Shown: positions 9,715-53,799, counted from the first letter of the stretch. The stretch: DNA of 64,000 bases from Psammoneis japonica (GCA_008632985.1 QPGO01000055.1:124001-188000); one strand, 5' to 3'. Numbers and translations: made by a program. The notes: generated by a model from the sequence alone, not told the origin.

Positions 9715-9926
9715 GATAAGGAGCCTCTACAGCATGGTATGTTTCGCAGCAGTTCGCATATTGTGTCCCTTTGATACCATGAATAGTGACGTCTATCGTA
9801 CATGGGTATTCTCTTCATTCGTCTTCTCCTCTCCTTCTTCCGTTTGATGTCACCAGAGCACCACGCAACCCCCAGAGATTTCAGATTTGAGTTTGTGACG
9901 GCATGCTGGAAGCTGGAATGCGGCGG

Positions 9927-10134
9927 TGTGAAGATATCATATTTCATACGTCATTACATTATGACTCACTGTCCCAAAAATGACTCATAAACATCGGTCT
10001 TCAATGAGAGACGAGGAGCCTCTCACATCCTCACAATTTTACTACAGCTGTTATTGTAACACCTATTTGATCGCCCCAATACTTACTAGTCATCACTAGC
10101 TACCGCTACTGATCTGCTTTTGAGTATTTAAACA
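9927..10134 (+). repeat. 5' LTR
   Basis: TGTGAAGATATC...TTTAAACA; aligns without gaps to 15921-16128 with 14 substitutions. Confidence 0.96.
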
Positions 10135-10156
10135 CGCTTCCTCTGCGCTAAGTAAC

Positions 10157-11466
10157 ATGTCTGATGCCTCTTCAGACGCTTCGTCCGTTTCTGGACCGGA
10201 GCTAGGAGATGTTCCCGAAGATGTCCCATTTGCATTGGCTCCGGCACAAGTGATCACCACGGTCATCGATTATCGTTCGAGTGCGGGTCGTAAGCTTTTT
10301 GAGCAAGCTGCCAAGCCGCTGGACGAGGAATTGTTCGATTGTGAACCAGGAGACCTGTGCCAGTTCCTCAAGAACTTGGAAGACAGAGCCAGAGAGTTTG
10401 GGTGGAATGATGAGAACGGAGTGTTCATGATCCCAGAAGACCACGAAGACATCCTGGAATCCGAGAGGTCTAATCTGTTGACCGACTGTGGTCAGATGGA
10501 CCCAGAGAGGATCCGGGGCTTTGAAGAATCCTCATCGGTGACGAGAGTCGCGCAGCGCAAGATGCCCATCTAGCGTGTCGCTGCCTGATGAACTCCACAT
10601 CGAAAGCCGGAAAGGATAAAGTGAGGATCTGGGAATCAGAACACAAGATCGGAGATCGCACGTCCGGAAATCTCCTTCTCAAGATCATTGTCAGAGAATC
10701 CCACCTCGATGCGAACGCCACGACGAGTGCGATCCGAACGAAATTGAGTCAACTCGACCTCTGTCTCCCAACGATCGGTCATGACATCTTGAAGTTCAAC
10801 CAGCACGTGGCATTGTTGCTTGCCGCCCTTGAGTCACGAGGCAAAACCACTGAGGACCTGCTTGCGAACCTCTTCAAGGGGCACCTGGCTGCTTCCGACA
10901 AAGTTTTTGTCAAGCACATCGAGCACAAGCAAGAACAGCATGAAGAGGGCGAGGACATGTCGGCGTCGCAACTTATGAACCTCGCGGGCAACAAGCACAA
11001 GAACCTGCTTCAGAAATCGCCATGGAACGCCCCTGGTGCGTCTGAAGAAAAGATCTTGGCTCTCCAAGCTCAAGTGGAGGCCCTCAGCAAGAAATCCCAC
11101 AAGAAGACGGGAAACAAGGGAAAAGACCACGACGCGTCTCAAGGTGCTCAGAAAGACGGGAAGCCTGCGTGGTTGAAGAAACACAGGCGTCCCAAACGCG
11201 ACCAGTTGGCCAACCCGAGAACTTGGAAAGGTGCCGCATGCTGTTGGTGTGAGAAGAGTGCCGGCGGCAAGTGTTCTGGCAAGTGGCGTGTCCACAAGCC
11301 CTCCCAATGTGAAGGCAGAGAAGGCAAGAACAAGCCACAGAAAAACGAGTCTACAGCACCACCCCACAAGAAACAGAAGGGACCTGACGGACACCCACGG
11401 CTCAAGCTCAACAAAGCATGCCAAGCCGCAGTGGACGGGCAGGACTCGGGCGAGGAGTCTCAATGA
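10157..11466 (+). pseudogene. gag: copia gag (frameshift near 10530)
   Basis: ORFs 10157-10573 and 10588-11466 join with a frameshift. Motifs IRTKLSQLD and DLLANLFKG, plus a C-terminal W-C..C.GKWRVH zinc-knuckle-like segment. Confidence 0.85.
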
Positions 11467-11781
11467 CTCCTTGAGCACGGCTGCAGCAGTTGTGATGGAC
11501 ATGGGTTGGAAACCATGGCGTCGAAGTGTTTTGCGATCATCAAGGCAACTGCGCTCTTCGCCTGGCAGGCATTCGCCTGCAACTGCACAACCATTATAAT
11601 GACGTCGCTCTCATTTGAAAACAAACGAGTGATCGAACAAAAGCTGCTAGCTTGTGCTCTAATTTTACTGTCGACAGCGATGGTCCTGATCCACATTTAC
11701 TTCTACGCGACCGACCCCAACCACAAGCCCGGACACACACCGAAACGGAAGAGATGGCACCGGGTACGATGAGGGTGGACC

Positions 11782-14700
11782 ATGCTCACTGAAGGCATGT
11801 ACAAGACAGGGACCAGCATTGAGCAGATTGTAGAAAGCATCACCACTGCCAACAAACCCAGAAGAGGGAGAACAATCAAGATCCAACGTGCCGCAACAAA
11901 GGTGAAACCCAGACAGAAGAGGCGAACATGGGGCTTGATTATGGCGCTAGCCATGGTGGCCATGCAAGCCGAAGGGAAACACATAAAAGAGCACACCGTC
12001 ACGTTTGACACCGATTCTGGGCCAGTCGGAGTGGACAACAGATGTGCAGGTTGCATGTCCGACCGAACAGAAGACTTCATTGGCGAGCTGAGAGACACAA
12101 GAAGAACCATCAAGGGATTCGGTGGCTCTCGAACTACAGGTGTGAAAGTTGGCACCCTGCTGTGGAGATGGAGTGACGATGAGGGAAAGACACACAAGTT
12201 CGCAATCCCCAACTCATTCTACGTACCTGACGGCAAGGTCCGCCTGCTAAGTCCCCAACACTGGGCAAAGGCACTGAGAGACAACAAGCCGATCGAAGGA
12301 ACTGGATCAAAGACAAACTCGAAAGAGGTCACACTGTTCTGGAACCAACGAAAGCATCGACTGACTATGCCGTTGAGCGAGACTACGAACGTAGCCACCT
12401 TCCGCTTAGCACCGGGTTATCAGAAGTTCGAAGCATTTTGCGCCGACGCGGACATCGATCCAGCGAAAGAAGTGGACGATCCTCTCCTTGCACAAGATGC
12501 AGCAGTTGTCAGTGATGACGAGGACGAGGAAGAGACGGATGTCCAATGCGATGCAAAAAGCATCGCCAAGGAATGGCAACCTGAACCCCAGGAGGTGGCG
12601 CAAGAGACAGGGTTGGCTGCCGATCAGCGCGTCCACCCACTGGGAGCAACGTTTGACATAAATGGGCCAACAAGCAGTGGCAACTCAGAGGGAGCACCGA
12701 CTGCTCCACCGCCACGAGTGGTGGAAGATGAAGAAGACAGACAGCCAGATACGGATGCGGCGCTGCTCCTCAAGCACCACCAACAATTTGGGCACATTGG
12801 CTTCACAAAGTTGCAATGGATGGCAAAGATGGGCATTCTACCAAGACGGCTCGCAAAGTGCAACGTGCCTGCTTGCTCGGCATGCCTGTGCGCAAAGGCG
12901 ACCAAGAGAAAATGGCGCGACAAGGCACGGAACGATGATGCCGAGATAGAAGCTCCAACAAAACCAGGCCAAATTGTCTCAGTGGATCAATTGGTGTCTC
13001 CGACACCGGGTCTAATCGCACAAATGACGGGCTTCTTGACCACAAAACGGCACAAGTGCGCCACAGTCTATGTCGACCAGCACTCCAAATTGGGCCACGT
13101 TTGTCTGCAAAAGACAGCAACGGCAGCTGAAACGTTAGAGGGAAAACAAGCTTTCGAGTTGCATGCAAAGAGTTGTGGCGTGACCGTTCAGGCTTGCCAT
13201 GCTGACAACGGAACATTCAAGGCCAACAACTGGGTGCACACGTGCAGGAGACAAGGGCAACAACTGACGTTCGCTGCCGCAGGCGCTCATCACCAAAATG
13301 GCACAGCAGAGCGACGGATCCGAGAGCTCCAAGAGCTCGCCCAAACAATGTTGATCCATGCCAACAGCCGCTGGAAGAAGTGCATTGCCACAAATTTATG
13401 GCCCTGCGCGATTCGCATGGCCTGTGACGCCATCAATCATGCGCCCAACCTCCAACACAAAGACCGATCAGGCCCACTCCAGCTGTTTTCCAACACGAAA
13501 GTTGCCACCAATCCAAAGCACTGGAAACCATTGGGTTGCCCAGTGTACGTGTTGGACTCCGCATTGCAATCAGGTCTGTCGTGTCACAAATGGAAAGACA
13601 GATCAAGGGTTGGAATGCACTTAGGCCGAAGCCCACAACATGGCAAGAACGTGGCCCTGGCACTCGACCGAGAGTCGGCACTATAAAAGCCGGGTTCGTT
13701 GCTCAGAGGGAGACAAAAGGAACCAAGAAGAGTGGCGAGACCAAAACGGCTCCCACAAGTGCTCCGGATCGTCCCAAGAAGAAGTGCGCACGAGCTTCAG
13801 AGGGAGCGGGGCAAGGCAAGAAACGAAGAACCATTCGTTGGGCTGACCAACTAACACGGCCACAAGATGGCGATGCTGCAGCAACCGACAGCCAATCGGT
13901 GTCCGAACGAGAGATGCGCCGAGAGCCCAATCACAACAAGGCCAACGCATCCGAAAGGACTGAATCTCTAGAAGCACCTCCACATGAGGGCGAGTCTGAT
14001 CAAGCATGAGACGGTCATGCTGAACCAAAAGTGACACGATCAGGGCGCAAGAGCCAACCGGTCAGCAGATTGATTGAGTCCATGGAGACTGAGATCAAGA
14101 AAGACACTGAAGGAGGCGTCGACGGAGAACTGCTGTGCTTGGCCGCACTGCATCCTCGAGACTCGCAAGCCCTCCAAGAAGAAGTCGCAAATCCCCTCCT
14201 TGCCTGCAAAGCATCAGCAGATCCTGACACCATGTGCATGCACCAAGCCATGAAAGAACCGGACCGCAAGGAGTTCCTCAAGGCGATGCAAAAAGAGGTG
14301 AAGGATCAAATGGAAAATGGAAACTGCTCCATCATTCCAAGATCACAGGTGAAACAAGACAGAAAAGCACTGCCTGCAGTGTGGCAAATGAAGCGAAAGC
14401 GAGACATGCGCACCCGAAAGGTGAAGAAGTGGAAAGCGCGACTTGACATTGACGGCTCGAGGATGAGAAAAGGAAAAGACTACGATGAGACGCATGCGCC
14501 GGTTGCATCACGAAATTCAATGCAGCTGCTGCTTGCCTTAGCAGGAGCACATGGGTGGCATTCAAAGCAACTGGATTGTGTCCTCGCTTTTCCTCAAGCA
14601 CCGGTCGAAAAGGATCTCTACATGGAGATTCCGTCCGGATTCGAGCTCGAAGGCGCCAACACCAAGGATTATGTCCTGCGCTTGCATCGGAATGCACACG

Positions 14701-15851
14701 GGCAGAAGCAGGCAGGGCGAGTCTGGAACAAGTGTCTCGTGGACAAGTTAGTCAACAAGTTGGGTTTCGAGCAATCCAAGGTCGACGAGTGTGTGTTTTA
14801 TCGCGGAAAAACGATTTGCCTTCTCCACACGGATGATTCTTTGCTCGTAGGCCCTGATGAATCTGAGATCAACAAGATCATAGAGGAAATCAAGCAAGCA
14901 AAGTTAGATGTCACGGTGGAAGGCGACGTTCAAGATTTCCTTGGCATAAACATCACCAGAAAGTCGGATGGAACGATGCACCTGACGCAACCCCACCTGA
15001 TCGACCAGATTCTGAAAGACTTGCGACTTGATAAACCGAGTGTCGTCGGAAAAGACACACCTGCAGCTTCATCCAAGCTCCCATCCAGGCATTCAGAATC
15101 AAGACCATTTGACAATTCCTTCAATTGCAGGTCGATCATCGGCAAGCTGAATCACTTGGAGAAATGCACCCGAAGCGACATCGCGTGCATTGCGCACCAG
15201 TGCGCGAGATTCACTGCAGACCCGAAGGTAGAACATGGCGAGGCCATGCGGTGGCCAGGCAGATGTCTGTATGTCACGAGAGACAAAGGTGCAATTCTGA
15301 AACCAGATTCCAAAAAGGATTTGGAGGTGTACGTAGACGCTGACTTCAGTGGCAATTGGGATCGAAAGGAAGCTGCGAGCGACAGAGATGCCACAAGATC
15401 CCGTCACGGGTGTGTCATCACTTACGCTGGTTGTCCCATCCTTTGGAAGTCTCAGCTACAGACTGAAATGGCGTTGTCCAGTGCCGAAAGTGAACACACC
15501 GGATTGTCGTATGCCTTGCGAGAGGCCATCCCTGTGATGGAAATGTTGAAGGAACTGAAGTTGCGAGGGCATCCAATCAACTCGACGACGGCGAAGATGC
15601 GCTGCAAAGTTTTTGAGGACAACAGCGGCGCTCTGGAAATGGCGAAGGTACACAAGTGCAGACCGCGCACCAAGCACCTCAACGTGAAGCTGCACCATTT
15701 CCGTGACTGTGTCAGTCGAAAGGAGATCTCAATCCACTCTATCGACACCACTGCACAATTGGCCGATTTTCTAACTAAAGCGGTCAATCTGGACGTTCTG
15801 CTTTGGTTGCGACCGAAAGCAATGGGTTGGTGGGTATTTGAAATACTTTAA
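11782..15851 (+). pseudogene. pol: copia pol (protease, integrase, reverse transcriptase, RNase H), disrupted near 13685 and at a stop at 14007
   Basis: Protease-like GVDNRC; integrase HQQFGH..CSAC, VSVDQ, HADNG and HHQNGTAERRI; RT KARL, GQKQAGRVW and LLHTDD; RNase H VYVDADF, FEDNSGA, RTKH and QLADFLTK. Confidence 0.95.
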
Positions 15852-15920
15852 AAGTGGATTCGCGCGCAAAGTGCGTCAAACCTTCATTTTCGAGATGCAT
15901 GAGATCAAAATGAGAGGGAG

Positions 15921-16128
15921 TGTGAAGATGTCACATTTCATACATCATTGCATTATGACTCACTGTCCCAAAAATGACTCACAAACATCGGTCTTCAATG
16001 AGAGACGAGGAGCCTCTCACATCCTCACAATTTTACTGCAGCTGTTATTGTAACACCTGTTTGATCGCCCCAACACTCACTGGTCATCACTGGCTGCCGC
16101 CACTGATCTGCTTTTGAGCATTTAAACA
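15921..16128 (+). repeat. 3' LTR (TpA-mutated copy)
   Basis: Same length as the 5' LTR and immediately follows the polypurine tract. Confidence 0.96.
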
Positions 16129-19100
16129 CGGCGGGACTCGGAAAAAGTCACAGGAAAGCTCATGCCGGCACCGGCAAAGAAGCATCAAAGCCCCCGTTTG
16201 AGAGAGACATTTTTGTTGTGTTACAGCACAAATGACTGCATGATCGAGCAAGTCATTCAGGGCACCGGACGTTGTCCTGAGGCTTCGCACCAACGCTCAA
16301 CAACTGACAGCGCCATTTTGTTGATCCCACCACCACACAAATTGCGTGTTTGAGCGCACCTCACTCTTCTCTTGCTGCAGCGGGCATCTGAGCCTTTGTT
16401 TTGCAAGAACACCACATTTGGCATGTCATCAGCTGGGGTCTGTTTTTGGGAGGCATCAAGATCAGCAGCCGGCGCCCTGTGTGTGGCAAAAAAAGTGGCA
16501 GCATCGCGAGCAAGTGTGGGCACAGGAGATTGGTTTGGTGGCAGCTGAGAATGAGGCAGCTCAAGATGAGCTCTGGCCCATCATCACACAAGCACAAGGG
16601 TGATGCCACACCATGGCTCTCACGTGCAAAGCAGCAGCCGTTTGGCTCCAAAGAACATTTTGAGACTTTGAGAAAAAGACTGCAGCAGCTCCACCCTGAT
16701 GTTTTAACTCTGGCAAGTGAAGTTCATCAACCAGCTCTTGGTGTGTGGTTGTTGAGCTGGCAAGTCAATGTCACCAAAAAGGGAGCCCCGCCAGGCTTGT
16801 TCCTGCGCCACTTGTTGTGCTTGACTTGGTGATCTGCAATGGCTGTCGGGGTTGCCAAAAGTTGTCAACACAAGTGCAAACTTGTGCAACAACCGGTGCC
16901 TGCCAACACACCAAATGACCAACCAAATGATTTGCTCTAAAGAGTGAGATGAAAGTCAAAGGTGGGGGGTTGATGATTGTGAAAGCCTTCTCACAGAGAG
17001 TCTCCCAGCAAACCACATCAGGTTTTAAAATGTCTTTCCTTCAACACGTCTGGGTGCCTCACAATGTCTGTGCGATCCAATTGCTCCAACAGCAGCTCAA
17101 GAAAAAAGAAGCAGTCAAACAATGTTGATGCAATTTTGCTGGTGCAGCTGCTGCCCCTGGTGCAAAATTTTTGGTGAACAGAAGCTCTCCCTTTCATGCC
17201 TCTGCTCTGGGTTGACTGCAGAGATGCAAGGCATGGAGTGTGAAAGCTCAAAGGTCATGTGACTTTTGCACTGATTTTTCTTTGTGGATTGTGCAGTGCA
17301 TGTTCTTGGCATGGAAGAGGTGGAACTCTGTTGGAGCTTTGCATGCATTGTTGCTGTCAACTGCTGTTGCTGTGCTGGCTGGGTGCAGAAGCTGAAAAAG
17401 AGCACAAGACCCACAACTCAAATCAAGTTGCAAACACAAACTTGCCACATTGACAACAGTCATCAGCACATCTTTCCACTGCAACTTTTTGTCTGTCTGT
17501 CCTGGGAAAACTGCCTCTGAGACCCCAATGTTCTGGCACACTCCTTTGCATGAGAGCGACCTCTCATGTGCACCAAGCAAAGAAGGATGACACTTGGAAT
17601 CCCTGCCACCCAACACCATGTTGACTGGTCTGCATCACACAACTCCACCAACGAATGATCATTGTGGGGGCAATCCTTTCTCACATGCCCAGCTTTGTTG
17701 CATTTCCAGCATCTGGGCCAATCTGCGTCTTTTTGCTCTGCACAAAACTTGTGCCATCATGTTTCTTGTTGGCTCTGTGGTGTCCAACACCTGCAAGAAT
17801 GCCTCCTCAGCTAAATTGGGACAAATGTCAACCCCCAATGTGAGCTGCCGATGCAGGTCTTTCAATGCATGCCAATGATCCTTGGTGCCTTCCACTGGCA
17901 TCACTGCCAACTGTTTGTTCCTTTCTTCTTCATTCCGGGTGTCATCAGCATCCTTGCTGAACCCATCTTCTTTCTTGGCAGTTTCTCTTGGGAAGATCCT
18001 GCCAACTGCTTCCAAGCCTTGACTGCCTGGACATGTGGGGTTGTCTTTTCTCATTTGCATTGAACAAGATCAACTTGAGAACATCCAGCAGTGCTGTCAC
18101 ATCCCAGCCTCCTTTGTGACTCTGGTGAACTCCATCACTCCTTCTGGTTTGTGACAAATGGCCTTGCCTTCTCACATTGCCCCATGATGACATCAAATGC
18201 CCTCGCCTTCCATTGCCCACAAGACTCAAAACGTGTTGTGAGCATTGCTTCTCACAAAAAGAGCAGAGCCCGATGGTCAGCGTGAAACCGTGGCATGTCA
18301 GTGCCTCAAAACTGGATCAAATGGAGATGACAGGCAAGATGTTCCCTTGACTTGGTGGGACAATGGCAAGGAAGACAATTGTTGTCAAGTGTGTTGCTGA
18401 AAAGATCTGTGAAGATTCCATTGTTTTGGCTGTCTGTCCTGTCAACTCCTTTTTTGTTGACAACGGCATTCTCCGAGTGTCAACTTTTGATGTCTAGATT
18501 TTTTGACAGGCGCCAATCTGGCATTCTGACAGGCTGCAATGCGTCCACGGGTCTGACCATGTGGCACTCAGGTGATGGTTTCCCGTCAAGGCAAAAAGTC
18601 CTTCTCCTTGATTGAAGCAAGCTTTGCTTCTCTTTGTTTCTTCGCACTGTGCGTGGAGGTTGCATTTCATGTGTTGGCACCATGAAGTTTGACCTTGCCT
18701 TTCTTCTCAACCCCAATGAAAAGTCGTCCTTCAAAAAGTTTGTGAAACATTCCATGTCAAAGCCCCATGCATGCTCCTTGGAGGAATCAGAAAACTGGTT
18801 TCTCATTCCGATGAGACGGGTGGAGGCAATGACCACAGTGCCGGCATCTTGGGAACTTTGCGGGGACTGCTCGATCAGCCAGCATTCCTCTTCCAAGTTC
18901 TCACATCCCAAGAACACAGTCGGAGGTTCAGCTCTCTGTCAACAAGGAAGCCGCTGAGCAACGAGATGCTCAGATGTTCCACAGCCACAGAGTGGTGTCT
19001 CAATCGGGAGATGATGTCTTTGGTGGCACCTGTGATTCTTCTGTGGTCAACTCCCAGCAGAGGCCCTGGGGGTCAGCCTGCTGGAGGCCCACTGGGACAG

Positions 19101-19908
19101 CCCACCACTCTGTTGCCACCCAAACACAGAAGCTGCTGATGAGGAGATGCCATGTGACAAACGAACACTGCACTCCAGCGCAAGTGGACAAAGAGCAGCT
19201 CCTCTTTGAGACTTCCCCACCAACTCTTTCCTGCAGGAATGCAATGGAAACCGTGCACTCTTTAAGGGAATGTGTCACCACCACAAACTCGCATGCGGAG
19301 ACAAGATTTAAAAGGTGGTTGCGAAGATTCTGGCAAATTTCATGTCGACTGCGATCTGCTGCTGCATCTTTTCAGTGCATCAGACCCAAGACTCTGCGGC
19401 AACACCCCGATGCCCAAATGGCTCCCTTGTTGCCACAGAAAGATGAGGAGACAAAGAAACAGAGATGAGGAATTTCCAACAATCCGTGACAGAAAAAAAA
19501 TGGAATCACTGCATTTCCCACTCTCCGCTGTGCTTTGTCTGATTGCCACACTCTGGATGTTTGTCCGCAAACTTCTTGCATGCACGAAAGAGCTCCCATC
19601 CTGGATGGGCAAGGAGCATGTGCTCTGGGTTCTCATCAGGATCATCGTTGGGATGGGCATCTTCATTGGCATGCTTCATGACAATCCCCACACACAAGCA
19701 GATTTCCGACTTTCGAAGCTTGTCCTTGAGCTTTTCCTCCCAATCACCACAGGCGTCGATGAGGCTTCATAGTTTGAGGTGGTTTTCTGCAGGAAGCTTC
19801 TTCTTCTTTTGCGTCGATTGGTGCTGTTTCTTGGTTTCTGGTTCCTGCTGTGACGCAAGACAACCCTCCATCTCGGCGTGGCGCACCGCGGCTTCTTTCT
19901 CACCGGAG

Positions 19909-20166
19909 GCCTGTTCCAGCTCCAGGTGCTCTGCTTTTCAACACGTGAGAGGCCGATTTTCTGCGCAGTTCAGCGCAATTAACTCCTTCAATTTTGATTG
20001 TTTCGAAAATCGAAAGGTGAGTGTACACCCGAAAACACATGCAAAGTGTACACTCACCCTTCGATTTGGCAAAAAACGGATTTGGAAAAAGTTAATTGCG
20101 CTAAATGCACAAATTTCCAAATGATGGGAATCGAACCCGCGCGGAGCACCTGGAGCTGGAACAGGC
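19909..20166. repeat. Imperfect ~260-bp palindrome, probably two transposon ends back to back
   Basis: GCCTGTTCCAGCTCCAGGTGCTC (19909-19931) pairs with 20144-20166, AGCGCAATTAACT pairs with AGTTAATTGCGCT, and AAATCGAAAGGTGAGTGTA (20007-20025) pairs with TACACTCACCCTTCGATTT (20049-20067). Confidence 0.8.
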
Positions 20167-20675
20167 CCGGACAACAAAGAATCCGACACGCTGCTCGCAG
20201 TGGAGGGCAATGAATGTTCCGGGGGCGGGTCCGACGGGGGCGGGTCCGAATCGGATTTCCATTTGGTGCGCAATGTAGGCTGCGTCGTTGGCTGCTTGAG
20301 CAAGGTTGCTGTTTTCTCTTCTCCAACACGAGCATTGATGTCTGGTGCACCCGCGACCTTGGAGCAGTCTGGCAATGCATCCGCAGACTGTGCTGGAGGG
20401 GTGGCCATTTGCGTCAATGAAGTTTGTGTCAAGGTCGTACGCACTGGAGGACAAAGTGTCAAGTTCAAGAAAGTGTTGCGTTGTTGCTGTCATTTGACGT
20501 GTGATGCACAGACGTTGTTGACTCGCTGTGATGTCAGTTCATGAACAATTCATTCGCGCCATTTTCGCTCCATCCCCACTGCAGTGCACACAGCACATGA
20601 GCCACCCCTGTGCAAGGGCTGCTGTGGGATGCAGGTGGGTGTGGTGCATTGAGCAACAACTCCCATCCCATGGCA

Positions 20676-30180: not shown

Positions 30181-30689
30181 TGAACCAAATCGTGCACAAA
30201 AACGACATTTGCGCGATTTTTGCGCGGTCCCTAACTTACGATCGAACTTTCACCACCAAAAGTATAGATTTATACAAAATATAGGGCCCTAAATGTTTTG
30301 CAACACTAACAAGACTCGTGTGAGTGTTGCAATATCATTGTTATTGTGCCATCTATGTTTTTCATTGCGTTAAAAGATTCGTAACACAACGGATGATTTT
30401 CGGGGAAAATATTGCCGTTATTTGGATGTTACCTAAATATATCTTTCTACGACGATGCTTGGTAGGTTTTCTACCTACAAAGAAATCTCAGTATAAATCC
30501 ACTGATGTACAATCAGTATTGAGTCTACTGAGGAAGTTTATGATACATATCCCATGAGGATTTGAATACCACTCAAAAAACTATTTAAGTGTTCATACTC
30601 TAGAAGCCTATAAAAGTCAATCCGTCTAAGTATTTTTTATTAAAATGCTATATACACTCAAATATACATAAATTATGTTCAAAATCCGA

Positions 30690-37447: not shown

Positions 37448-37536
37448 TTTTCCTGTTACAGTACTGTTTATTGTTTATTTATGTGATGGGTGATGCAAGA
37501 CGCCCGAGGCAGGTGGAACAGGTTATGTGGTGGGAC

Positions 37537-40829: not shown

Positions 40830-43800
40830 TCGAATGACCGTCTGGACATGCGAAGATTTATGCCGGTGGAGCTTGAGATGCTGACAAGATTTCAGAGGCA
40901 TCATGAGGACAGAGATGTCGCTGCTGGAGAACTCTGATTTCTTGTCATCCAATGCATCGGTCAATTGCACATTCAGAAGAAGCATTGGCGACACAAGAAA
41001 GTGAAAGACTGCTTTGTTTTCGATCTCTCTCTCTTGAGGAGGTTTTGCAAGAAGCTGCAAACACGCTGCAGCTCTGGGCGGGGTTTTGCACTGTTGGGCT
41101 CTGACATCACATTTTTTCACAATTTGCCAAGTGTCGTGCATGCACGTTTCCATGTGACTTTGGCAAAATTTTGCATCATTTCATGGCACAATGATTGTTG
41201 GGTGCCACACCCATTCAACAACTTTTGACAATTTTTGTCCCGCGCCATTCTCAAACATCTTGAGAGTGGGTGCAGCACAGACAGATTGTCAAAAAAATTT
41301 GATGTAAAAAGGTTCAATTGTGCCATGAACTTGGTTGCATCAAATGCAAAAATGTTTGGGTGGATGGCCGGCTGGGGTGTCCATTTGTGGCAAATTGAGT
41401 TTCCGCACGCACGACGTGCAGACACAAGCAAGGACAGCCCAGACGAGCCATCTGAGCACGGCGGATTTGGAGCCAGCTGTTCCAAATCCATTTTCCAAAA
41501 GTTCGTCTCTCTGATCCATTGCAATGTTTGGCTGTGTGCATTGTCCCGTGACAAAGCACATGATGTCACGTGTTGTGTCACACAGCCAAGCTGCAGCTGC
41601 GCTGTGGGGCACAAGAGAACAAGGTGTCACGAGTGCGAGAACTTTCAACATGCAAAGAGGATGCCAAAAGCATTCACAAGAAAGTTGATTGAAAAAGCAT
41701 GAAGCAAAATGCTTCCAAAGCAATGAGTTGTGGCACATGGGAATGACAAAGACTGCTTCAAAGGTCAAAAATGGTGTGATGGTTGACGGCGTCGCTGTCT
41801 CGGGCAAACCCCAATTTCTGTTCCTGTCATGAGACAAAGATCATGGCACAAACAACCTGTGTGTGTTCATCATGTGCAATCATGCCATCCACAGTGGAAA
41901 CAAACTGAATGACTGCAGACGTGTGCACTCAGCATGTGTGTGCCACTGTCGTGAGAGCGTCGCAAAAAGTCAGCAAACACACTGCCTCTTGGCATGTCCA
42001 AGTGCAGCACTGTGGTCAACAGCAACAATGAATCCAACACATCTGTTGTGTGAAGCACTGCCTCGTTGTTGTGTGACAACACTCTCAACTTGATCAACCA
42101 TGCGGCCGTTGATGCACGAACGAACAAGTCCCATGGTGGGAGAGTGGAAGTGGTGTTTTTGATCGTTCATTCAGCATTGCGTTCGATGCAACATCAAGTT
42201 GCAATGTCATGCACTGTAAATTTGTTCAGCTTTCTGTGCGGCAAATGCATGAAATCATCAGAGATGCAACCTCAAGCAACCAGGATGTGGTGATGAAAAG
42301 TGCCAAAAGAAACCCGGATGCATGGATTCTTAATTTGCCAAAACCAGGCAATCTTGCTGCATCCAACCAGCCATCCACCTGTTCCCAGCTGAGCTCAAAT
42401 CTGACAATGAGAAAAAAAGAAATGCCAACCCACCCAGTCACATGCAGCGCTCATTGCTGGCACAGCTTCGTTGCCATGCAAACTCAGCAAGCTGCTTGAA
42501 ACAAACCAGCCACCTTGTCCTGGAGCTTTCTGCTCAACAGGGTTCACCTGCTTGGTCAAAGCACCTTGCTCCATTTGAAAATCCAAAAGATTGCTGCTTT
42601 GCACTCTGTTTTTGAAAGGCAGCCAAGTCAGCTGGCACAGAAAGACATTCAAAAATCACATTGTTTTGGAACACTGGAAGGCCAAAAGAGTTTTTTTGTT
42701 GGCTTTGAAAATGAACAATGAAAAGCAAAAAAGGTGCAACAGGAGCCAAGGCATTTTCCATGATCTCATTTGCCTGTTGAACATTGTCAGCTGGCAGGGT
42801 TGGCAATGAGGGCAGTGCACAAAATGTCAGCTGCCACTTGATCCATCCACTCACAGACAGCACTCTGACTTGAGGGTCTCATCATGCACAGTGCACACAA
42901 CCGCCACCCACATGCTGATTTGGCAGCATTTGAAACTCTCTGTCAACAAGTTTCTGCCATCATCATGAGTGCAGCAATTCAACCTGGGGTGTCAAGACAA
43001 CTGACAAAAGATTGCAAAACTTGTCGGCAACAGCATGCCAAGACAAGCTCGGCATTCGTTTTTTGCATGACTGACAACTGCGCAAAGAAAAGTGAGTGCA
43101 TCAAACTCTTGCTCTTGCCCTTGAGCTGCAGTTTCTGAGAACCAATCAAATTTGCCAGCACTCCTTTGCCCCAAGGCTTCAACTGAGCTTCTCCTTTAGC
43201 AGGTGCTGCGCACAGCTTGTCATGGCCTCTGAGCAGCTTGCAACTCTGGACTCATTCCAGCCCCACTGGGCAAAACATCTGCAAACATTTTTTCTCATTT
43301 TTGCAAGAAGTTCATTTGTTGTCAGGTCCATTGATTGCAACAACAATGCTCAAAAATGTTGCATCACATCATTGAAAAACGTGCAGCTGCACACATGCAG
43401 CTGGAGCAAGTCATTGGCAGGCAATGCAATCAAATTTGTTGCACAAAGATGACTTGAGTCAAGACAATGCAAGTGAGCACAAATGCTCTCATGCAAACAA
43501 ATGACACTGCAATGCCAAAGGACCTGATGGCCTTGCACAACAGGATTGTGTGAGACAGCAGACAAGCAGAGGTGCAAATCTTCCAAGCTCCAGGTGGGTC
43601 ATTCATTTGACGACAATGTTGTGTCAAAGAACAGCTGTTCATGATTTTGGTCACAAAGTTTCAGAGGTTTTGCTTTTTTTGCTGCTGATCTCATGGCAAG
43701 CTCCAAAAACCCCCAAACCAAAGCTGCTCCAGTCACAACATCTGTGTTGGATTTGACATCTCTTCCAAACATTTCGGCAAGCCAAAAAGAGCCTTCAAAC

Positions 43801-46350
43801 AGCTCTGCTTGCAAAGAAAAAAAAATTTGTGTCAGACTGACGGTCGCCAAACCAAAGTCATCTTTTTGCTCTCTGTTTGTCAGTTCAGAAGTGCCCAACT
43901 TTTCGAATTTTGCTGTCTTGCCATGCCTGCACTTGACTGTTTGGCCCCAGGCTCTTCCTTTTCTCAATTGCAGATCCACCTGGAGCAGACAAGATGAACA
44001 ATCATCAAGCACATCATGCTTGCCTTCTGCACAACCAAAACATGGAGCAAAGTCATCAGGGAACAGGCACCACTCACAGACATGCTGGGCATTTAAAGTG
44101 TCAAAAGTGAGTTTTTTGTGATCCACTTGTGAGCGGCAATGTCCACACCAAATGGTGCAGCACAGATTTTTTGAAGCACACACCACAACATTCTTGAGGA
44201 GCTCTTTTTCCACAGTCAAAGAGCTGGGCAGTTCTGCTGACATCTTTTTTGACCAATGTGCATTGCCAGCATGCCGTTTTGGACAACTGCTGCATCTGTC
44301 TGATGGTGCAATGCAACAGCACAAATGTGACACAGATTGCTGTGGCTGGGATGTAAAAAAGGAGCAACTCACTTGCTGTCACATGTTTCATTTCCTTGAA
44401 CACCAGCTGGCAAAAGCTTTGCTCCATTCAAGAATCCTTTGCCAGTCAAGCTGGTTGATGGAGCTCACACATGAGCAACAAAGCCACCATGTGTGGCAGC
44501 AGGCACCTGCTCCAAGAAATGAGTGCAGCTGCAGCATTCACAGCAAGGCTTCAATTCTTTTTTTCAAGACTTGATGCTGGTGGGAGCAAGCCTGTCACAA
44601 GAAAATCACCAGCTTTTTGAACACACCAACCACATTTTCAGTGGAGGAGCTTTCAAGCCATTTCTTGCTAAAAATTGTTGCAGAGCCACATCAAGTTGTG
44701 TGAGGTGGGTGTCAAAGTCAACATCAAAAGTGCCAACATTGTCAATGTCAGTTTCAACATCCAAGCTGTGATTCACATCTCAATCACAGCTTGTGTGACA
44801 TCCACAGCTGTTTTTAATCTTTTTGCCATTTGACAACATTGCAGTTTTTCATCAGGTGTTGCAATCACATCAAGCTCCTCACTTTCATGCACTGCACAGC
44901 AGTGTTGGGGTGGTTGGACTTGATGATTCTCAGGACAGGGACAGGGTGGTGGCAGCACATTTTAATTGCAGATTTTTAGCTCCTCTGTGGAGTCTCGCTG
45001 AGCAGTCTTGTTTTGTCAACCAGGGTTGTGAACATCCAATGGTTGTGAGGGCAATGATCAACAACTGGTTTGTGCAAAAACAACAGTTGAAAATTTTGCA
45101 TGGTCTCATCAGTGGAAAAGCTGTGAGATGCCCATGATGATGTGATGCATGGCAATGACTTTAAAACTTGTGAGTCTGCTCAACATTGTGGTGCTGAGGC
45201 TGAGGTGATGTCCATCTTGGCTCTTGCACAGTTGACTTTTGGGCACAGCATGAAGTTTGCTTGTTGCTTGATTTGTTGAAGAAGGAACAACACCTTCTTG
45301 CCAGAGTCGAGCACACAAGACATGCAAGGTGCTTGGCTGGGCATGGTCTTTGCACTGTTGTGAGTCACTTTGCTGGCAATGTGCTGCCTGGTGGTGGCAC
45401 TGATCTTCTCAGCCAAGTGTTGTGTGCACTCTTTTTTGCACACAGTTGTGAGCCAGGTGTGTGGGTTGGGTGTTGTCAAAATTGCAGGGTGGAAGTGCAG
45501 CAGCACTGTGGGTGCAGAACTTGGCTCCATTCATCATCCTTTGCGGCAACTGTGGCTGCCATTGCCATGGCCTCCATTGTTTCCTTTTTTTCTAAAACGG
45601 CTGCTGCCTTGGGCACTGCACCTTGGCTTTGAGAGCCATGACAACTCAGGTCACTGGGGTTGTTGCAACATTGCTCCCCAAATGTGACACTCTTGATGCC
45701 ACAGAACAGGGCAGCACAGATCATTGGGGTTTGGCTTTTTCTTGTCATCTCTTTTTTTTCACAACCACAGTGCTTGTTGCAACCATCACTGCCATTGCTG
45801 CTGCTGCCACTGCCTTCTTCTCATGGCTCATCCTTGCTTGTTGTGGTCATTCTTGCCATTGCAAAAAAATCTTCTCATTCTCCATGCATGTCTGAAGGTG
45901 GCTCAAGCATCATGGTGCCAACAAGGAGACTCTTCCCAGCTGCTCTGCCCTCAGTCCAATGGGAAGACATGAAAGATGATGTTTTTTGTCTCTTGCTCAA
46001 CAGTCCTTTGGTCAATGTGAGCAGCAGTTGTGACAGAATGAGGCTTTCTCACAAGTTGAAAGTTTAAGAGTGTCGCCACACAGCTGCAGGATTCACAAAA
46101 TGCTGGCACATGGATTCCACAGCTTGGTCAAAATGATCAGTGTGGTCAGCCCACACTTGCGTGGATCTCTCTTGCTCAATGGAATGTGCTGCATCAGAAG
46201 CAAGCACTTGCAAGAAGCTAAAAGCAAGCATCGTCAACACAAGCAAAGCATGGGTGACTTTTTTGTTCAGAGTCATCACCCTTGTCTCTCTCACCGTGCA
46301 GGAATGATGGAAAAAACTTGGGAATGGGGAGGCTGGGTCACAAAAAGACT
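40830..46350. other. TpA-depleted degenerate block 4
   Basis: TpA nearly absent except in TTAA/CTAA/TTAG-type contexts; CpG also rare. Contains a degraded coding remnant shared with block 5. Confidence 0.9.
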
Positions 46351-47002
46351 CTAGATTTAAGAATTTAAAACCTTGACTGACTGTGCTCAGCTCAATGTAG
46401 ATGTCGGGCAGCAGCCATTTTGAGAGAGGACTGTGTTTGTGCTGAACCACAGAAGAATGGCAAACACTCATCTTTTGTCTCTAGAGGGCAGAAGCCAATT
46501 GTGCAAGATCTCGTAAATCAGACAAGCTGCAGTGCCTCAGGCTACCTTGCATCTTCTCTCTTAGCAGAGCACACTCTTCTTAGAGGCATTCCAGCTCACT
46601 GAAGTAGATCCAATCTAAATTTTAATGTGCTAGAGGAGAGAGACTCCTTAATCCTCAATCTCGTCCTGGAGGCATTCGAACTCACGGAAGCAGACACTCT
46701 GCACCTCGTTATTGTCGAGAGGAGAGTGGCTCCTTAGTCGAGACTATTTCACATTGCATCAGTGACACCACACTGTAGAGAGAACTCTGGACGGGGCTAC
46801 CAAGAATGTGCAAAGGTCAGACTAATTCAAAAGGTTCCATTTACAACAGCAAAGCAGACTTTCCCGACGGTGATCCATTCGTTCACAACAACGATACACA
46901 ATGTGAACTATTAAATCTTTCTAGATCTTGCCAACAACCAAACTTTAAGCTTGAATCATCATGGCTTCCAAGGAAACAAACTACCAGAACTACTCCGCAC
47001 GA

Positions 47003-50541: not shown

Positions 50542-50919
50542 GTCTACTTTTTGTTTATAAATAAATGACTAAAATAAATGGAAAGGTTAATCGTTGTTCG
50601 TTTGTTTACTGTCTCGTTGTGGTTTCTGCCGTCGTCGTCGTCGGCAGCAGCGTAGGTCTACAGTATTGTTATTCCCTGCCTGCGCCTGAAGCATCCTCGA
50701 AATGATCTGTCCGTCACCCGTATCCTAACCCCCAATGGATCCAATCGACATCAATGATTGGGTCCTTCAACATGTTGGTCTCGATTCGCCTGTTCGAATT
50801 TGAATTGAACCAAGAACTGTGCCCGTGTGTTAAGCAAAGAGTTCTTAATCGATTAAGAATTAAGAACAATGAAAAAATTAAGCAAGAAATGCTCGATCGA
50901 TCAAGAATTAAGAACTCTG

Positions 50920-53250
50920 CACCAACAAGCCTCGTTCGCCCAATGCAGTCCTTCTCCCACCCCACCTTCACGCCTTTCCTGTGTGCTCCCACAGGTGCTG
51001 CCCCTGCTTCACTTCTCACCATCCCCCGATCCCTCTCCTTCCTGGCCCCAGTGTGGAAAACGCCTGGCGTGGTCATTTCTTGAGCTTCTGCGTGTGTTTT
51101 TTGTTCACGTGCGCCTTTTCGCGCTGCCTTTTGCGCAACCACAAAAACCTGCTGGATGGCACCATTGAATCGCTTCTTTTGGCCCTGCTGCAGCATGAAA
51201 CACCAATTTGATTCAATGGTGTGACAACACAGACACTCCAGTGCTGATTCCAAGTGCAAGCTGTCAACTCTCTGCAGACAGCACCTCACTTCTAAAACAG
51301 CGCCACTCTCCAGGTGCACCTCGGCATTGAACAGCACCCGACTCTGTTCCAGCTCTGCCATGAGACACACTTCAGCATCCTCACATGAGTGCCCCATGTT
51401 GCTCACCAACATTGAAAGCTCGCTCTCACTCAAAAAAATTGCCGGACAGCACCCATCCCCAATGACATCCGGCATCGGGTGTGGTGCCGCAGATTCTGTT
51501 CCACCGGATCAAGGTGCTCAATCACCTCCACTCCAGTGGGATTCTGCATCTCTTCCAAGTTGCAAACACACTGAAAAAACTTTTGAATTCCACAGCGAAG
51601 CAATTGCAAATCCTTTGCAAAATCATCCCTGCCATCATCACGCTGAAAAACAGCGCTCACCACTTGACTGTGGTGCACAAACGACCGGGCAATGGTCCTC
51701 TCGGGACACAACAGTGATTGCAAACACAATGAATGGATGCCCACAGTTGCCCCCCCTGCAAATGTCAACCACCATTTTCAAGCCCTTGGTCTTCAGTAAC
51801 CCTCTTGGCCATTGCTGGGAAGAAATGCGCATGCTCAACATTGGTGAGTGGGGAGTTTGGCGGTTGTGGCACAAGCTTGCTCCCAACCACAATGAGCGAA
51901 TTCATGATCACAAAGGTCAACAGAACCGAGTCAACATGTGGAGTTGTGTTGTCCCGCTGGAGCCAAAGATGCACTTGTTTTCCGGTGTTGTTTTCCGCCC
52001 TCTGAGCAACCACTTCCCATCTTTGCCAACAGAATGTTGTGGAAGTGACCCAACAGTGCAAACTTCGGATTTTGTTCCATCCCCAAATTTGATCCAGTGA
52101 CCTCCCAATTCTGAAAGCACTCCTTGCCTTTGCTGTGCAACACGTTCTCTGCAACCTTTGGACAATGGAATTTTCTGCCAGCCCTGCATGCATGGTGACA
52201 TGAGTTCTTCTTCATCTTCACCTTTCCACCAGCAACGCGCTCCAGCTCTGGGTGGGACCTTGCACTGCTGAACTGTGACATCGACAGTTTTTTGGATCAT
52301 GCCGCATGTCGTGCACACAGAAAGGTGCGTGATTTTTTTGAAATTTTGTGTCATTTTGTGGTGCACTCATTGAGCGATCCGTCCAACAACTTTTGACATT
52401 TTTTGTTGTAGCGCAATTCTGCAATGTCTTAAAAATTGCATGGGGCAGGTGCATTTGCAAAAAGGTCAAGTGGCAAGAGGCACAATTGCACCACAAACTT
52501 GGTCATTCATTTGATGTTGAAGACAAACACACATCCATCAATTGAATTCTTGTGCCACGGAGCTCGCACATGGAACATGGAATTCTGTGGGCCCAATGTC
52601 ACACAGAGTCCCACCCAGGACTGGAGCCCATCCGGCACGAGCACAGCCAACCTTGTGCGCAAGCCCCCCCTCTCTGAAAATCATTTTCAGCAGGTGCAAA
52701 AATGCTGCTGTGTTGCAAGTTCCAAGACCTTGTCAATTTGATTTTTGTGATGCATCGCCAAGAAGTGAAACCAGTTTTTGTCCACATGCAAAACAAGAAC
52801 TTGAGTCAGCAATGCCGCCATCTTGGCCCGCTGGATGCTTCTTCCTGCCACCACTCATCATCAACTGTTCTTTCACTTTTAGAAGAGCACTGGCAACACC
52901 TTCAGGAGGTCTTTGTGGTGTTTCCGTTGCTGTGCATTTCCACCACTGACGCTGTGGAGTCAAGCTTCTTTGTTGTGTTCCATCGTCAATGTGTGTGGCT
53001 GACGAGTTTCATTCTGTGATCGTCGATGAGCACTTGCAGCCAATGATGCAGGAGAGAGTCTCCTCAGAACAACATCAAAAGACTGAGTCTGTTGTTGGCT
53101 GCACATTGCACATGCGCTCGGCCATTGGAAGCACTGAAACCCATGACCACGACAAAGCCGATTCCGCCTTCACTGTCTAACTCGGGTCATCCCGTGCTGT
53201 GTGCGCCGGCGCCACCTGCACCAATGCACCAACTGAGTGGACGTTTGGAT
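50920..53250. other. TpA-depleted degenerate block 5
   Basis: Same TG/CA-rich, TpA-poor composition as blocks 1 and 4. Confidence 0.88.
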
Positions 53251-53799
53251 TTAGTGGAGGAGGGTCCATGGTGCAGAGGTGTCGTCATACGAAGCAGCAG
53301 TTGACGGCACGAGCGACATGTGCTGCAGCGGTTCCATGTTTTTTTTTTTTTTTTTTTTTTTTTATGGCGGGTCACGGGTCGTTGATGCTTTTCCCTCCGA
53401 GCCAATTTGCGTAGAAGCAGTGCTACGATACGGCCCAAAAATGTAACACGGTATTTCGTCGTGGACAAATGTCGCTTACCGGAGGAAGTGCTAGAGAGTT
53501 CATGCTCAATGCGGTGCTCTACACCGGTATGCTCAATGCTACATCGGAGTGAATTTGAAATTGATTGCACATTGGTCTTCCTAGACTCTCTACTAGAGAG
53601 GGATAGTGGATCCTCAATGCCACACGGTTGGTTTTTTGTACTGTAGGGCGACGACTCGCATGTCGCACTCAGTGTGCCTTCTACTAATGTAGCAGGTGGC
53701 AAAAGCATGACACTACAACTGACAACTGGTCTAAACACGCCATTAACTCGACTAGCCAAGTCATCTCAAAGTTCTGATCTCAGTACCTCCACTCTGGAA

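Follow-up and report, generated by a model that had tools for sequence, protein, structure and literature searches.

In Neurospora and other fungi, RIP is set off before meiosis by duplicated sequence longer than a threshold, and it turns CpA/TpG into TpA, giving AT-rich DNA and newly created stop codons. APOBEC3/ADAR editing acts on RNA or single-stranded cDNA, before integration, is strand-specific and leaves both LTRs of an element alike. In diatoms, methylome work has found Copia elements to be methylated, and the Phaeodactylum histone-mark paper describes diatom Copia elements that bear H3K9me/H3K27me3 (PMC4504042). In their mutation-accumulation study of Bigelowiella natans, Mettrop et al. 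report that integrated viral DNA acquires A>G and T>C changes exclusively at TpA, at a rate of ~6e-7 per site per generation, and propose an ADAT2-like deaminase (bioRxiv 10.64898/2026.01.13.699255). According to the same preprint the mutations arise de novo in growing cultures, in some lines only, and during asexual growth; the main target is described as single copy, and TpA-poor coding sequences show an enrichment of transposon Pfam families. In our literature search we found the signature described only in this 2026 preprint, and we found no report from a diatom. The locus analysed here comes from Psammoneis japonica (GCA_008632985.1 QPGO01000055.1:124001-188000; the whole stretch of 64 kb is referred to as the window), and the host, which looks like a raphid pennate diatom, is a stramenopile, unlike the chlorarachniophyte (Rhizaria) B. 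natans.

The five TpA-poor blocks reported by a first-pass annotation of the sequence are real: they total 26.2 kb (41% of the 64-kb window) and have a TpA observed/expected ratio (o/e) of 0.04-0.23, compared to 0.59 in the remaining 37,427 bases of normal DNA. In sliding windows the ratio is 0.00-0.1 within the blocks and 0.5-0.7 outside; by block it is 0.04-0.05 for A2, C and D, and 0.23 for the interior of a copia element. In the blocks CA and TG are elevated to 1.5-1.95, and the GC content is unchanged (46-53%). The record run without TA measures 1,966 bp (20438-22404); in normal DNA the gap from one TA to the next is 25.8 bp on average and 181 bp at most. Segmentation with a 3-state HMM on P(A|T) (normal, partial and saturated) assigned 1-10153, 27423-29324, 30232-30674, 31343-40859, 46352-50909 and 53363-end to the normal state, 10158-16222 to the partial state, and 16233-27422, 29326-30228, 30676-31340, 40861-46350 and 50916-53362 to the saturated state. 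The switch points proposed earlier (27350-27480, 31330, 40820, 46350, 50920 and 53280) each lie ~100 bp or less from these borders. With expected counts computed per block at the o/e of normal DNA, we observed 39 TA instead of 428 in block A2 (P 2e-130), 14 instead of 227 in block C (P 2e-77), 6 instead of 84 in block D (P 1e-28) and 67 instead of 175 in the copia interior (P 1e-20). The TpA sites that survive are biased to a YTAR context. None of the 77 metagenomic Copia loci that served as a control set has a TpA o/e <0.34; tyrosine erasure of the same kind is seen in at least 4 of 269 public Copia proteins. Logan contigs of one DNA run (maybe from the assembly's own sample, library type unrecorded) match the window at 16047-17955, 18067-19936 and 26717-29000 with 0-3 other letters; the last of these bridges the 27.4-kb edge, which refutes the notion that the block edges are assembly joins.

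Within the window, the young Ty1/copia element was recognized by its LTR pair, its target duplication, the order gag - integrase - RT and an RVT_2 domain. Its interior (10291..15919, + strand; gag, protease-integrase and RT/RNase H ORFs; CpG o/e 0.83) has Pfam matches to gag_pre-integrs (11773-13686) and RVT_2 (14010-15851), and the catalytic box LYTDD of the RT now reads LHTDD. The element matches 120 public Copia-type proteins, among them one from Fragilaria crotonensis, at 54-68% identity. Since the target duplication around it is perfect over 5 bp (in GGCGG or CGGCG register), both LTRs belong to one insertion event. Each LTR is 211 bp long; the 5' LTR (9926..10136, +) is spared and holds 19 TpA (o/e 0.96), and the 3' LTR (15920..16130, +) is hypermutated, with 6 TpA remaining (o/e 0.37). 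The two differ at 14 of 211 positions, all of them transitions. In 13 cases (A>G or T>C if the 5' LTR is taken as the starting state) a TA of the 5' LTR faces TG (7) or CA (6) in the 3' LTR, and the remaining difference is CG versus CA, i.e. a G>A at CpG. At none of the 14 positions has the 5' LTR suffered the loss, no difference is found at the 161 other sites (outside TpA and CpG), and in a purine/pyrimidine code the pair is 100% identical over 212 bp. The earlier statement that only one of two originally identical LTRs has changed thus holds, with 13 of 19 TA sites altered in the 3' LTR but none of the 19 in the 5' LTR (Fisher P 1e-5). Identical LTRs of one insertion have thus met different fates, and the pair and its target duplication firmly indicate that mutation acted in situ.

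The direction of the changes was set by outgroups, namely 60 homologues of the RT ORF, compared at 378 conserved columns. Half of the 50 differences found there (25) consist of one TA>TG or TA>CA change, and another 3 are transitions at CpG. Conserved Tyr is replaced at 15 of 21 positions in the RT ORF, by C (9), H (5) or W (1), and in the integrase part at 6 of 7 by C or H; in RT and integrase combined, 21 of 28 conserved Tyr have given way to Cys, His or Trp. Sister copies in the same run retain TA at 15082 and 15153, and at 13618-9 and 14826-7, where CA stands in the window, they carry TG; each copy has been mutated independently. Both strands are hit in a balanced manner (7 TG versus 6 CA in the LTR; 14 Tyr>Cys versus 7 Tyr>His, binomial P 0.19; pooled 21 versus 13, P 0.23). 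As 13 of 19 TpA have gone from one LTR while the 161 other sites of the pair show no change, the rate at TpA is at least ~60x background, which is a lower bound; judged from the o/e values, the loss per site has been 2-5 times faster for TpA than for CpG. Taken together, the LTR differences and the outgroup direction lead us to in-situ TpA>TpG/CpA (A:T>G:C) hypermutation on both strands, and these sequence comparisons argue firmly for the signature, its direction and a rate far above background.

Fungal RIP resembles what we see in being a post-integration, DNA-level, dinucleotide-specific burst of transitions that ruins transposons, in its sharp contrast to adjoining genes and in that copies are mutated independently. 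Its outcome is the opposite: here TpA is destroyed without a shift in GC content, and the change cannot produce a stop codon. In fact, the composite RIP index of the blocks is strongly negative (-1.2 to -2.3), with TpA/ApT of 0.00-0.17 and (CpA+TpG)/(ApC+GpT) of 1.6-2.3; fungal RIP as C>T at CpA is ruled out by the TpA loss, the unchanged GC and the negative index. As for the B. natans system, three of its features (TpA-restricted A:T>G:C change, confinement to mobile DNA with genes spared, a raised local rate) are present here. Both systems show almost only A>G/T>C, at TpA only and on both strands, are limited to integrated foreign or mobile DNA and couple TpA depletion to a gain of CpA+TpG; an adenine deaminase has been proposed in both. 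However, in the present case LTR and TIR transposons are hit, nearly to saturation (o/e 0.04), compared to an NCLDV insert with rho 0.45 in B. natans, and our evidence is historical and read from sequence, whereas theirs is de novo mutation in mutation-accumulation lines. The preprint gives an increase of 1000x, whereas sequence alone yields our lower bound; the part of it available contains no LTR asymmetry, no co-localised CpG decay and no YTAR bias of surviving sites.

Apart from the young Ty1/copia element, the blocks are transposon debris of LTR and TIR type, and we found in them, besides that element, a gag zinc knuckle, TIR elements and repeats. Among 143 ORFs of the old blocks, the sole Pfam hits were zf-CCHC at 17466-17756 (-) and a triose-phosphate-transporter (TPT) fragment. 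Block A2 (16131..27422; TpA o/e 0.05, CpG o/e 0.36-0.38) consists of old, saturated, nested transposon debris. It includes a TIR element (20676..22635, +; 54-nt TIRs, 89% complementary) with a single TA in 1,960 bp compared to 69 expected, which carries the TPT gene fragment (21016-21421; Pfam TPT, E 2e-9); an X2 contig, ~90% alike, is the probable parent gene of this fragment. At 19908..20167 lies a palindromic MITE-like insert (inverted repeats I2 and I3; CpG o/e 0.98; 5 TpA, o/e 0.28), which is highly repeated in the run (summed bin depth 14,373 versus ~58 for unique bins). Block B had been drawn as a single piece; the depletion is confirmed, but the block falls into two saturated pieces, B1 (29324..30232; 2 TA versus 31 expected) and B2 (30674..31343; 2 versus 24), which flank an undepleted, TA-rich insert of 443 bp (30232..30680; TpA o/e 0.99, CpG o/e 0.94) bordered by inverted repeats of ~50 nt (30162-30215 / 30685-30726). 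Blocks C (40859..46350; TpA o/e 0.04, CpG o/e 0.23) and D (50909..53362; TpA o/e 0.04, CpG o/e 0.47) are saturated as well and have a 280-bp repeat in common (41060-41338 in C, 52234-52506 in D).

The block limits run within ~50-150 bp of conserved genes, and these neighbours (MDH, MOB1, PCNA, RRB1-like, kinase and VPS13-like) are normal, with a TpA o/e of 0.4-0.8. The region at 6.3-9.7 kb, described earlier as a broken gene that keeps its TpA, does have normal TpA (o/e 0.37-0.71), but Pfam and homologue searches of it gave no result, so the assignment as a broken gene found no support. CpG decay, which we used as a sequence proxy for long-term cytosine methylation, is co-localised with TpA loss (Spearman rho 0.68, computed from 128 windows 500 bp in length): CpG is depleted in 34 of 38 windows poor in TpA, but in only 3 of 90 others. 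The CpG-poor state of the same blocks (o/e 0.23-0.47) is shared with what is described for methylated diatom Copia elements and fits long-term cytosine methylation. Plain CpG decay, however, cannot remove TpA, and the CpG edge departs from the TpA edge at two borders, 27.3-27.4 kb and 46.3-46.8 kb: 27273-27422 is TA-free yet has a CpG o/e of 1.66, and the flank of block C at 46300..46800 is CpG-poor (o/e 0.34, P 5.5e-5) with a normal TpA o/e of 0.53.

The first-pass annotation had further proposed that the edges of the depleted domains are spared. The LTR pair agrees with this, but in the other repeat pair (17348..17538, +, and 25415-25601) both copies have been mutated and at many places show TG in one where the other has CA (identity of 93.8% in purine/pyrimidine code, 85.7% in four letters). 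Nor does the spared LTR form an outer rim: the adjoining 117 bp on its left (9809..9925; 0 TA, CA+TG 18) are TA-free, so that it is an island. In normal DNA, 52 of 3,608 windows of 117 bp lack TA, and 32 of 3,608 also reach CA+TG>=18. This flank is probably the left tip of an older depleted block that the copia element entered. To the right of the LTR, the leader and gag start (10137..10290, +; TpA o/e 0.51, 4 TA versus 4.6 expected) are compatible with a normal or a partly mutated state, and the first long TA gap starts at 10291.

We think it probable, on balance, that integrated mobile elements were hypermutated after integration from TpA to TpG/CpA on either strand, with slower CpG decay alongside. 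Mobile elements, i.e. the older LTR-type and TIR-type debris and the young Ty1/copia, would have integrated; the integrated DNA would then have lost TpA to TpG or CpA on either strand, nearly to completion, and ordinary CpG decay would have proceeded more slowly in the same DNA. The chemistry may be enzymatic deamination of T-preceded adenine in DNA, the resulting hypoxanthine being read as G. Because A34, the natural substrate of tRNA adenosine deaminase, comes after U33, a tRNA-adenosine-deaminase-like enzyme is a candidate. The target would be picked per insertion by local state and not by homology alone; this state may be silenced or methylated chromatin, or may be tied to the element's own transcription unit. 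Pure homology targeting, already doubted in the first-pass annotation, does not fit, as guidance by sequence alone cannot distinguish identical LTRs; since the blocks resemble sequence elsewhere in the run, some repeat dependence may nonetheless exist. The targeting of whole chromatin domains proposed there is favoured by the LTR asymmetry and by the overlap of TpA and CpG decay, but is at odds with the undepleted inserts and the mismatched CpG and TpA edges. Indeed, the undepleted short inserts within saturated blocks imply something other than simple, continuous targeting of a whole domain, which would fit them badly unless they are very recent; targeting per insertion accounts equally well for unmutated short inserts and mismatched edges. 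The sharp outer edges of the blocks may simply be insertion ends. The basis for position dependence is one LTR pair.

The blocks might also be explained by a RIP-like, homology-triggered process, in which any duplicated stretch longer than some threshold is detected and its TpA sites are mutated; mutation would then extend as far as the match to the partner, and the 5' LTR would escape if the partner had no 5' end. In favour of this, outcomes are specific to each copy, and the blocks do resemble sequence elsewhere in the run: 2,746 X1 contigs with 80-100% likeness match 9001-29000, and the copia element and most of A2 have several-fold the summed depth of unique-gene bins. The inserts of 260-450 bp within saturated blocks are unmutated, as a length threshold predicts. 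Nevertheless we consider this explanation unlikely, as the spared 5' LTR was originally identical to the mutated 3' LTR and its bin has a summed contig depth of 437, on par with the mutated part, so that repetitiveness fails to explain the sparing. In addition, bins at 18339-19672 have a depth of 64-65, equal to unique DNA, and are TA-free, although contig depth is not copy number; in B. natans the main target is reported as single copy, with mutations arising during asexual growth. Somewhat less likely still is that the whole insertion was targeted and the 5' LTR regained its TpA afterwards, when an unmutated LTR, e.g. a solo LTR too short for targeting, served as donor for ectopic gene conversion. 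The HMM switch at 10153-10158, only 17-22 bp beyond the LTR end at 10136, and the TA-free 117 bp outside would suit such an island, and as short sequences escape the process, unmutated donor LTRs could exist. On the other hand, the LTR pair has no differences beyond TpA and CpG, whereas family copies differ at other sites too (~5 of 40 listed differences), no donor was seen, and the near-normal TpA density of 10137-10290 weakly speaks against it.

The same targeting could also operate with another chemistry, in which the thymine of TpA is modified (e.g. oxidised by a JBP/TET-type enzyme, which yields 5-hydroxymethyluracil) and then becomes C through faulty repair or copying, the adenine not being deaminated. 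As TpA reads the same on both strands, T damage and A damage look alike in the data, and in dinoflagellates 5-hydroxymethyluracil is enriched at TpA. This base pairs with A, however, and we know neither of near-exclusive T>C caused by it nor of any base of its type in diatoms, which makes this chemistry improbable. We regard it as very improbable that A-to-I editing of element RNA, or deamination of cDNA, preceded integration and was fixed by it, although APOBEC and ADAR-type editing is well known to hit retroelements and late minus-strand deamination could in principle touch the 3' LTR only. The process here shares with APOBEC3/ADAR editing its deaminase-type transitions, a neighbour-base preference and the inactivation of retroelements, but it acts on both strands, leaves the LTRs different and affects DNA transposons too, TIR-type elements and the captured gene fragment being equally depleted. 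Pre-integration editing is disfavoured because it predicts strand-specific changes common to both LTRs, in place of 7+6 in one and 0 in the other; TA>TG (7) and TA>CA (6) within one LTR are not what editing confined to one strand, of RNA or of minus-strand cDNA, would give, and sister copies differ in outcome at the same site. The exclusion of errors of reverse transcription in the first-pass annotation holds. Least probable of all is an artefact, be it base-calling or polishing errors in modified DNA or contaminant or foreign sequence that is intrinsically TA-free. Modified bases may give systematic miscalls in some long-read assemblies, but the Logan contigs (from what may be the same sample) reproduce the TA-free sequence and its edges, Tyr>Cys/His replacement, target duplication and copy-specific outcomes are marks of real mutations, and the same pattern occurs in public proteins from other collections.

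In our favoured reading, mutation after integration, the process would erase all Tyr codons, TAA, TAG and TATA-like signals, and an element would be inactivated without the creation of a new in-frame stop codon. The one prior report of TpA-erasing hypermutation that we found concerns B. natans, an unrelated alga. In the diatom, the process would amount to a 'reverse-RIP' kind of genome defence, in which inserted mobile DNA is rewritten and adjoining genes stay intact.

The G/C content is 48% across the window, whereas the TpA content is two-valued. Outside the depleted blocks (37,427 bases) TpA stands at an observed/expected ratio (o/e) of 0.59 and CpG at 1.01; the corresponding ratios are 0.23 and 0.83 in the interior of a Ty1/copia element (10291-15919), 0.05 and 0.38 in block A2 (16131-27423), 0.04 and 0.23 in block C (40859-46219), and 0.04 and 0.47 in block D (50909-53178). 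Depleted sequence amounts to 26,242 bases (41% of the window), and the comparison of observed with expected TA gave P values from 1e-8 to 2e-130, block by block. The longest TA-free run measures 1,966 bp; in normal DNA the gaps average 25.8 bp and reach 181 bp at most. Within the blocks CA and TG are raised to 1.5-1.95, GpC is raised as well, and ApT, GpA and TpC are lowered, and the gain of GpC with the loss of the latter three is the pattern expected of TA>CA/TG plus CG>CA/TG changes. Among the 68 TpA sites left in the saturated blocks, 25 lie in CTAA or TTAG and 19 in TTAA, with none in ATAT. The YTAR share of TpA sites is 66% for these survivors vs 19% in normal DNA, an excess that hints at a wider sequence preference.

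The TpA-poor blocks described in the first-pass annotation are real: a 3-state HMM on P(A|T) reproduced their switch points to ~100 bp. Nor are the block edges assembly joins. Contigs from the public DNA sequencing run X1 agree with the TA-free sequence to within 0-3 letters and span both the junction between the copia element and the old block and the 27.4-kb edge. This run may come from the assembled sample, and its support is independent of the assembler, not of the isolate. Contigs from a second run, X2, leave most of the copia element and block A2 uncovered, and a third, X3, gave none matching; neither result has any bearing on expression.

The copia element (9926-16130) carries an LTR of 211 bp at each end and is flanked by a perfect 5-bp target duplication. 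Its ORFs encode gag_pre-integrs and RVT_2 domains, and tblastn with these ORFs found no second copia within the window. Its 5' LTR (9926-10136) and 3' LTR (15920-16130) differ at 14 positions. Thirteen of these are TA in the 5' LTR and TG (7) or CA (6) in the 3' LTR, the 14th is CG vs CA, and the 161 remaining sites show no difference. TpA sites are thus changed at 13 of 19 positions in one LTR and at none of 19 in the other (Fisher P 1e-5), and in this LTR pair the rate of TpA loss exceeds that of change at other sites by a factor of at least ~60. None of the 14 differences is an ordinary substitution; as the 6.6% divergence is wholly hypermutation or CpG decay, LTR-divergence dating is unusable for this element.

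Since the LTR comparison alone is silent on which copy changed, we used outgroups. For the RT ORF, direction was tested against 60 public Copia-type RT proteins with 378 conserved columns. The ORF differs in 50 of these columns, 25 of them by a single TA>TG or TA>CA change and 3 by CpG transitions. Among the 21 conserved RT tyrosines, 15 have been replaced, by Cys (9), His (5) or Trp (1), and the integrase part has Cys or His at 6 of 7 conserved tyrosines. The catalytic box (14826-14840) reads LHTDD here and LYTDD in relatives, and YVLY just before it has become CLLH; the polymerase was likely killed by the TpA process alone. Sister copies were available from X1, in which 2,746 contigs of 80-100% likeness match 9001-29000. 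In these contigs A>G, T>C, C>T and G>A differences number 260-271 each, and transversion types 34-80 each. Sister copies retain TA at 15082 and 15153, where the window has CA, and the tyrosine codons at 13618 and 14826 carry TG in other copies and CA in the window. The pooled strand outcomes are TG 21 vs CA 13 (P 0.23). From the outgroup tyrosines and the sister-copy differences it follows that TA was ancestral, that each copy was mutated separately after insertion and that both strands were affected. The LTR asymmetry proves that mutation took place in situ.

The rest of the blocks is old, nested transposon debris. We scanned 143 ORFs of at least 78 aa from the old blocks against Pfam; 136 had no family at E<=0.01, five more gave weak matches under the families' own cut-offs, and two matches were above cut-off, a gag zinc knuckle (zf-CCHC) and a triose-phosphate-transporter fragment (TPT). 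The transporter gene fragment (21016-21421) lies inside a 1,960-bp element (20676-22635) that has 54-nt terminal inverted repeats and a single TpA. A 1,238-nt X2 contig (depth 191), ~90% alike to the two halves of this fragment, probably represents the expressed parent from which the fragment was captured. A palindromic MITE-like element (19908-20167), also inside a saturated block, has retained its CpG and five TpA; the summed X1 contig depth in its bin is 14,373 vs ~58 in unique bins. Recoding the sequence into purines and pyrimidines reveals homologies masked by transitions: in this code the copia LTR pair is 100% alike, a repeat pair at 17348-17538 and 25415-25601 is 94% alike, and blocks C and D have a 280-bp piece in common. 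The alignments of these repeats are rich in TG-opposite-CA doublets, i.e. separate outcomes at a single ancestral dinucleotide. Two further ideas about block structure were rejected. Block B (29324-31343) is not a long hairpin: alignment of B1 with the reverse-complemented B2 scored 30, below the shuffled maximum of 35.5. Nor are blocks C and D copies of one element, the 280-bp piece being the only one shared and other alignments not exceeding the shuffled maximum of 47.5.

The genes flanking the blocks are housekeeping genes (malate/lactate dehydrogenase, MOB1, PCNA, an Rce1-like protease, DUF501, a kinase and a VPS13-like protein). For an RRB1-like ORF at 47003-48325(-) the closest named relatives are raphid pennate diatoms, with 65% identity to Mayamaea and 57-58% to Epithemia, Cylindrotheca and Nitzschia; the top match overall has 80%. 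One X2 contig covers 27473-27935 and 28332-29000, with only ~194 letters for the intervening 396 bp. It resembles a spliced dehydrogenase transcript, and X2 may be RNA-derived; if the contig is a transcript, its start would lie no more than ~50 bp from the block edge at 27423. The region 6298-9422(-), described in the first-pass annotation as a broken gene, consists of four ORFs in three frames for which we found no Pfam family and no longer homologue; its top Atlas score of 0.86 is a lead only. The bin 9001-9667 has ~3 times the unique contig depth and normal TpA, and the region may be low-copy sequence untouched by the TpA process. A tRNA scan and an Rfam scan gave no match.

Taken together, the process acts after integration, at the DNA level and on both strands, is specific for TpA and converts A:T to G:C. 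Old inserts are saturated and the young insert is ~60-70% complete, with CpG decay in the same DNA several-fold slower than TpA loss. Editing of RNA or cDNA is excluded by the strand symmetry of the changes, and the exclusion of reverse-transcription errors in the first-pass annotation holds. Chemically, the simplest fit would be deamination of adenine after T, the resulting hypoxanthine then being read as G. tRNA adenosine deaminases have A34 as their substrate, which to our knowledge is always preceded by U33, and in fungal mRNA editing by the tRNA adenosine deaminase family U is favoured before the edited A. Adenine deamination is also what the authors of a preprint on Bigelowiella natans propose (bioRxiv 10.64898/2026.01.13.699255).

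What decides which DNA is mutated is a separate matter. The first-pass annotation had argued that targeting follows a chromatin domain with spared edges and not sequence identity. Its logic is sound in so far as homology guidance alone is excluded, two identical LTRs being indistinguishable to a homology-guided mechanism. TpA loss and CpG decay go together (rho 0.68), and 34 of 38 TpA-poor windows are CpG-poor vs 3 of 90 others; Copia elements of the model diatom Phaeodactylum bear H3K9me2/3 and H3K27me3 (PMC4504042). Together these two points make a link between TpA loss and silent chromatin plausible.

A chromatin domain with a spared edge we do not accept, for five reasons. The LTR evidence for it comes from one pair. 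The HMM places the switch at 10153-10158, possibly exactly at the end of the 5' LTR, and gene conversion confined to the LTR would look identical. On the outer side of the spared LTR, 117 bp contain no TA, which is also true of 52 of 3,608 normal windows, so that this LTR is an island amid depleted DNA instead of a domain's rim; the adjoining 1.2 kb are the element's most depleted stretch (TpA o/e 0.10), hence there is no gradient. Short inserts in saturated blocks (30232-30680, 19908-20167) are unmutated or nearly so. Finally, CpG and TpA edges are mismatched at two borders: in the 500-bp flank of block C (46300-46800) CpG o/e is 0.34 (P 5.5e-5) and TpA normal, CpG decay thus extending beyond TpA loss, and at 27273-27422 the reverse is found. 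The data fit targeting of each insertion through its own state. Silencing might halt at an active promoter, or the process might begin downstream of the element's transcription start, which is where somatic hypermutation starts. A rule like that of RIP, acting above a threshold length, may apply instead.

By the genetic code, TA>TG/CA never yields an in-frame stop and removes TAA, TAG and all Tyr codons, so that long ORFs persist in dead elements. The same signature is seen, at the protein level, in public Copia-type proteins. Among 120 public RT relatives, P0179 has kept 1 of 22 conserved tyrosines (11 are Cys, 7 His) and owes 37 of its 78 differences to TA-type changes (median across the set 2%); P0130 shows a partial signature, with 4 Cys and 4 His at conserved Tyr columns. 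In another 147 cluster representatives, Cys or His fills >=30% of those columns in four proteins, P0287, P0266, P0289 and P0246. P0179, P0287, P0266 and P0289 are nearly devoid of tyrosine, and P0246, like P0130, is affected in part. Tyrosine makes up 1 of 701 residues in P0179 and 2 of 611 in P0287, the median over 269 proteins being 3.6%. These tyrosine-poor proteins are drawn from four source collections. In the control set of 77 metagenomic Copia loci, TpA o/e ranged over 0.34-0.90, none reaching down to the level of the window's copia. Protein databases are thus polluted by dead elements with long ORFs, stored as tyrosine-free 'proteins'.

Our literature search on the TpA>TpG/CpA signature found a sole description, the 2026 B. 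natans preprint. In its text, the de novo changes reported are A>G and T>C, at TpA only, in giant-virus and virophage integrated regions, with mutation events in some lines only and transposon domains enriched in TpA-poor coding sequences (bioRxiv 10.64898/2026.01.13.699255). The window shares the sequence-level features given there and, relative to that text, adds a new host lineage, saturated transposon targets, LTR asymmetry and co-localised CpG decay. The process is not fungal RIP, its direction being the reverse; the RIP index is strongly negative in the blocks, so RIP indices point the wrong way and the blocks escape them. We regard the window as a further case of a very recently described process, the observation being real and its chromatin-domain interpretation partly supported. 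For base editing, a DNA deaminase that acts on adenine preceded by T would be of interest, and a young element with one LTR spared and one mutated offers a clean natural substrate for enzyme discovery. A distant second lineage would make a single-species curiosity a class of eukaryotic genome defence. We put forward, tentatively and as a rather doubtful proposal, that diatoms possess a 'reverse RIP' defence by DNA adenine editing, guided to each element by its silenced state, halted at active promoters and the same as the system of the rhizarian Bigelowiella. If true, laboratory adenine base editors would have a natural counterpart in its enzyme, and the defence would be old and SAR-wide, a genome immunity by which tyrosine codons and TA-based signals are erased from mobile DNA.
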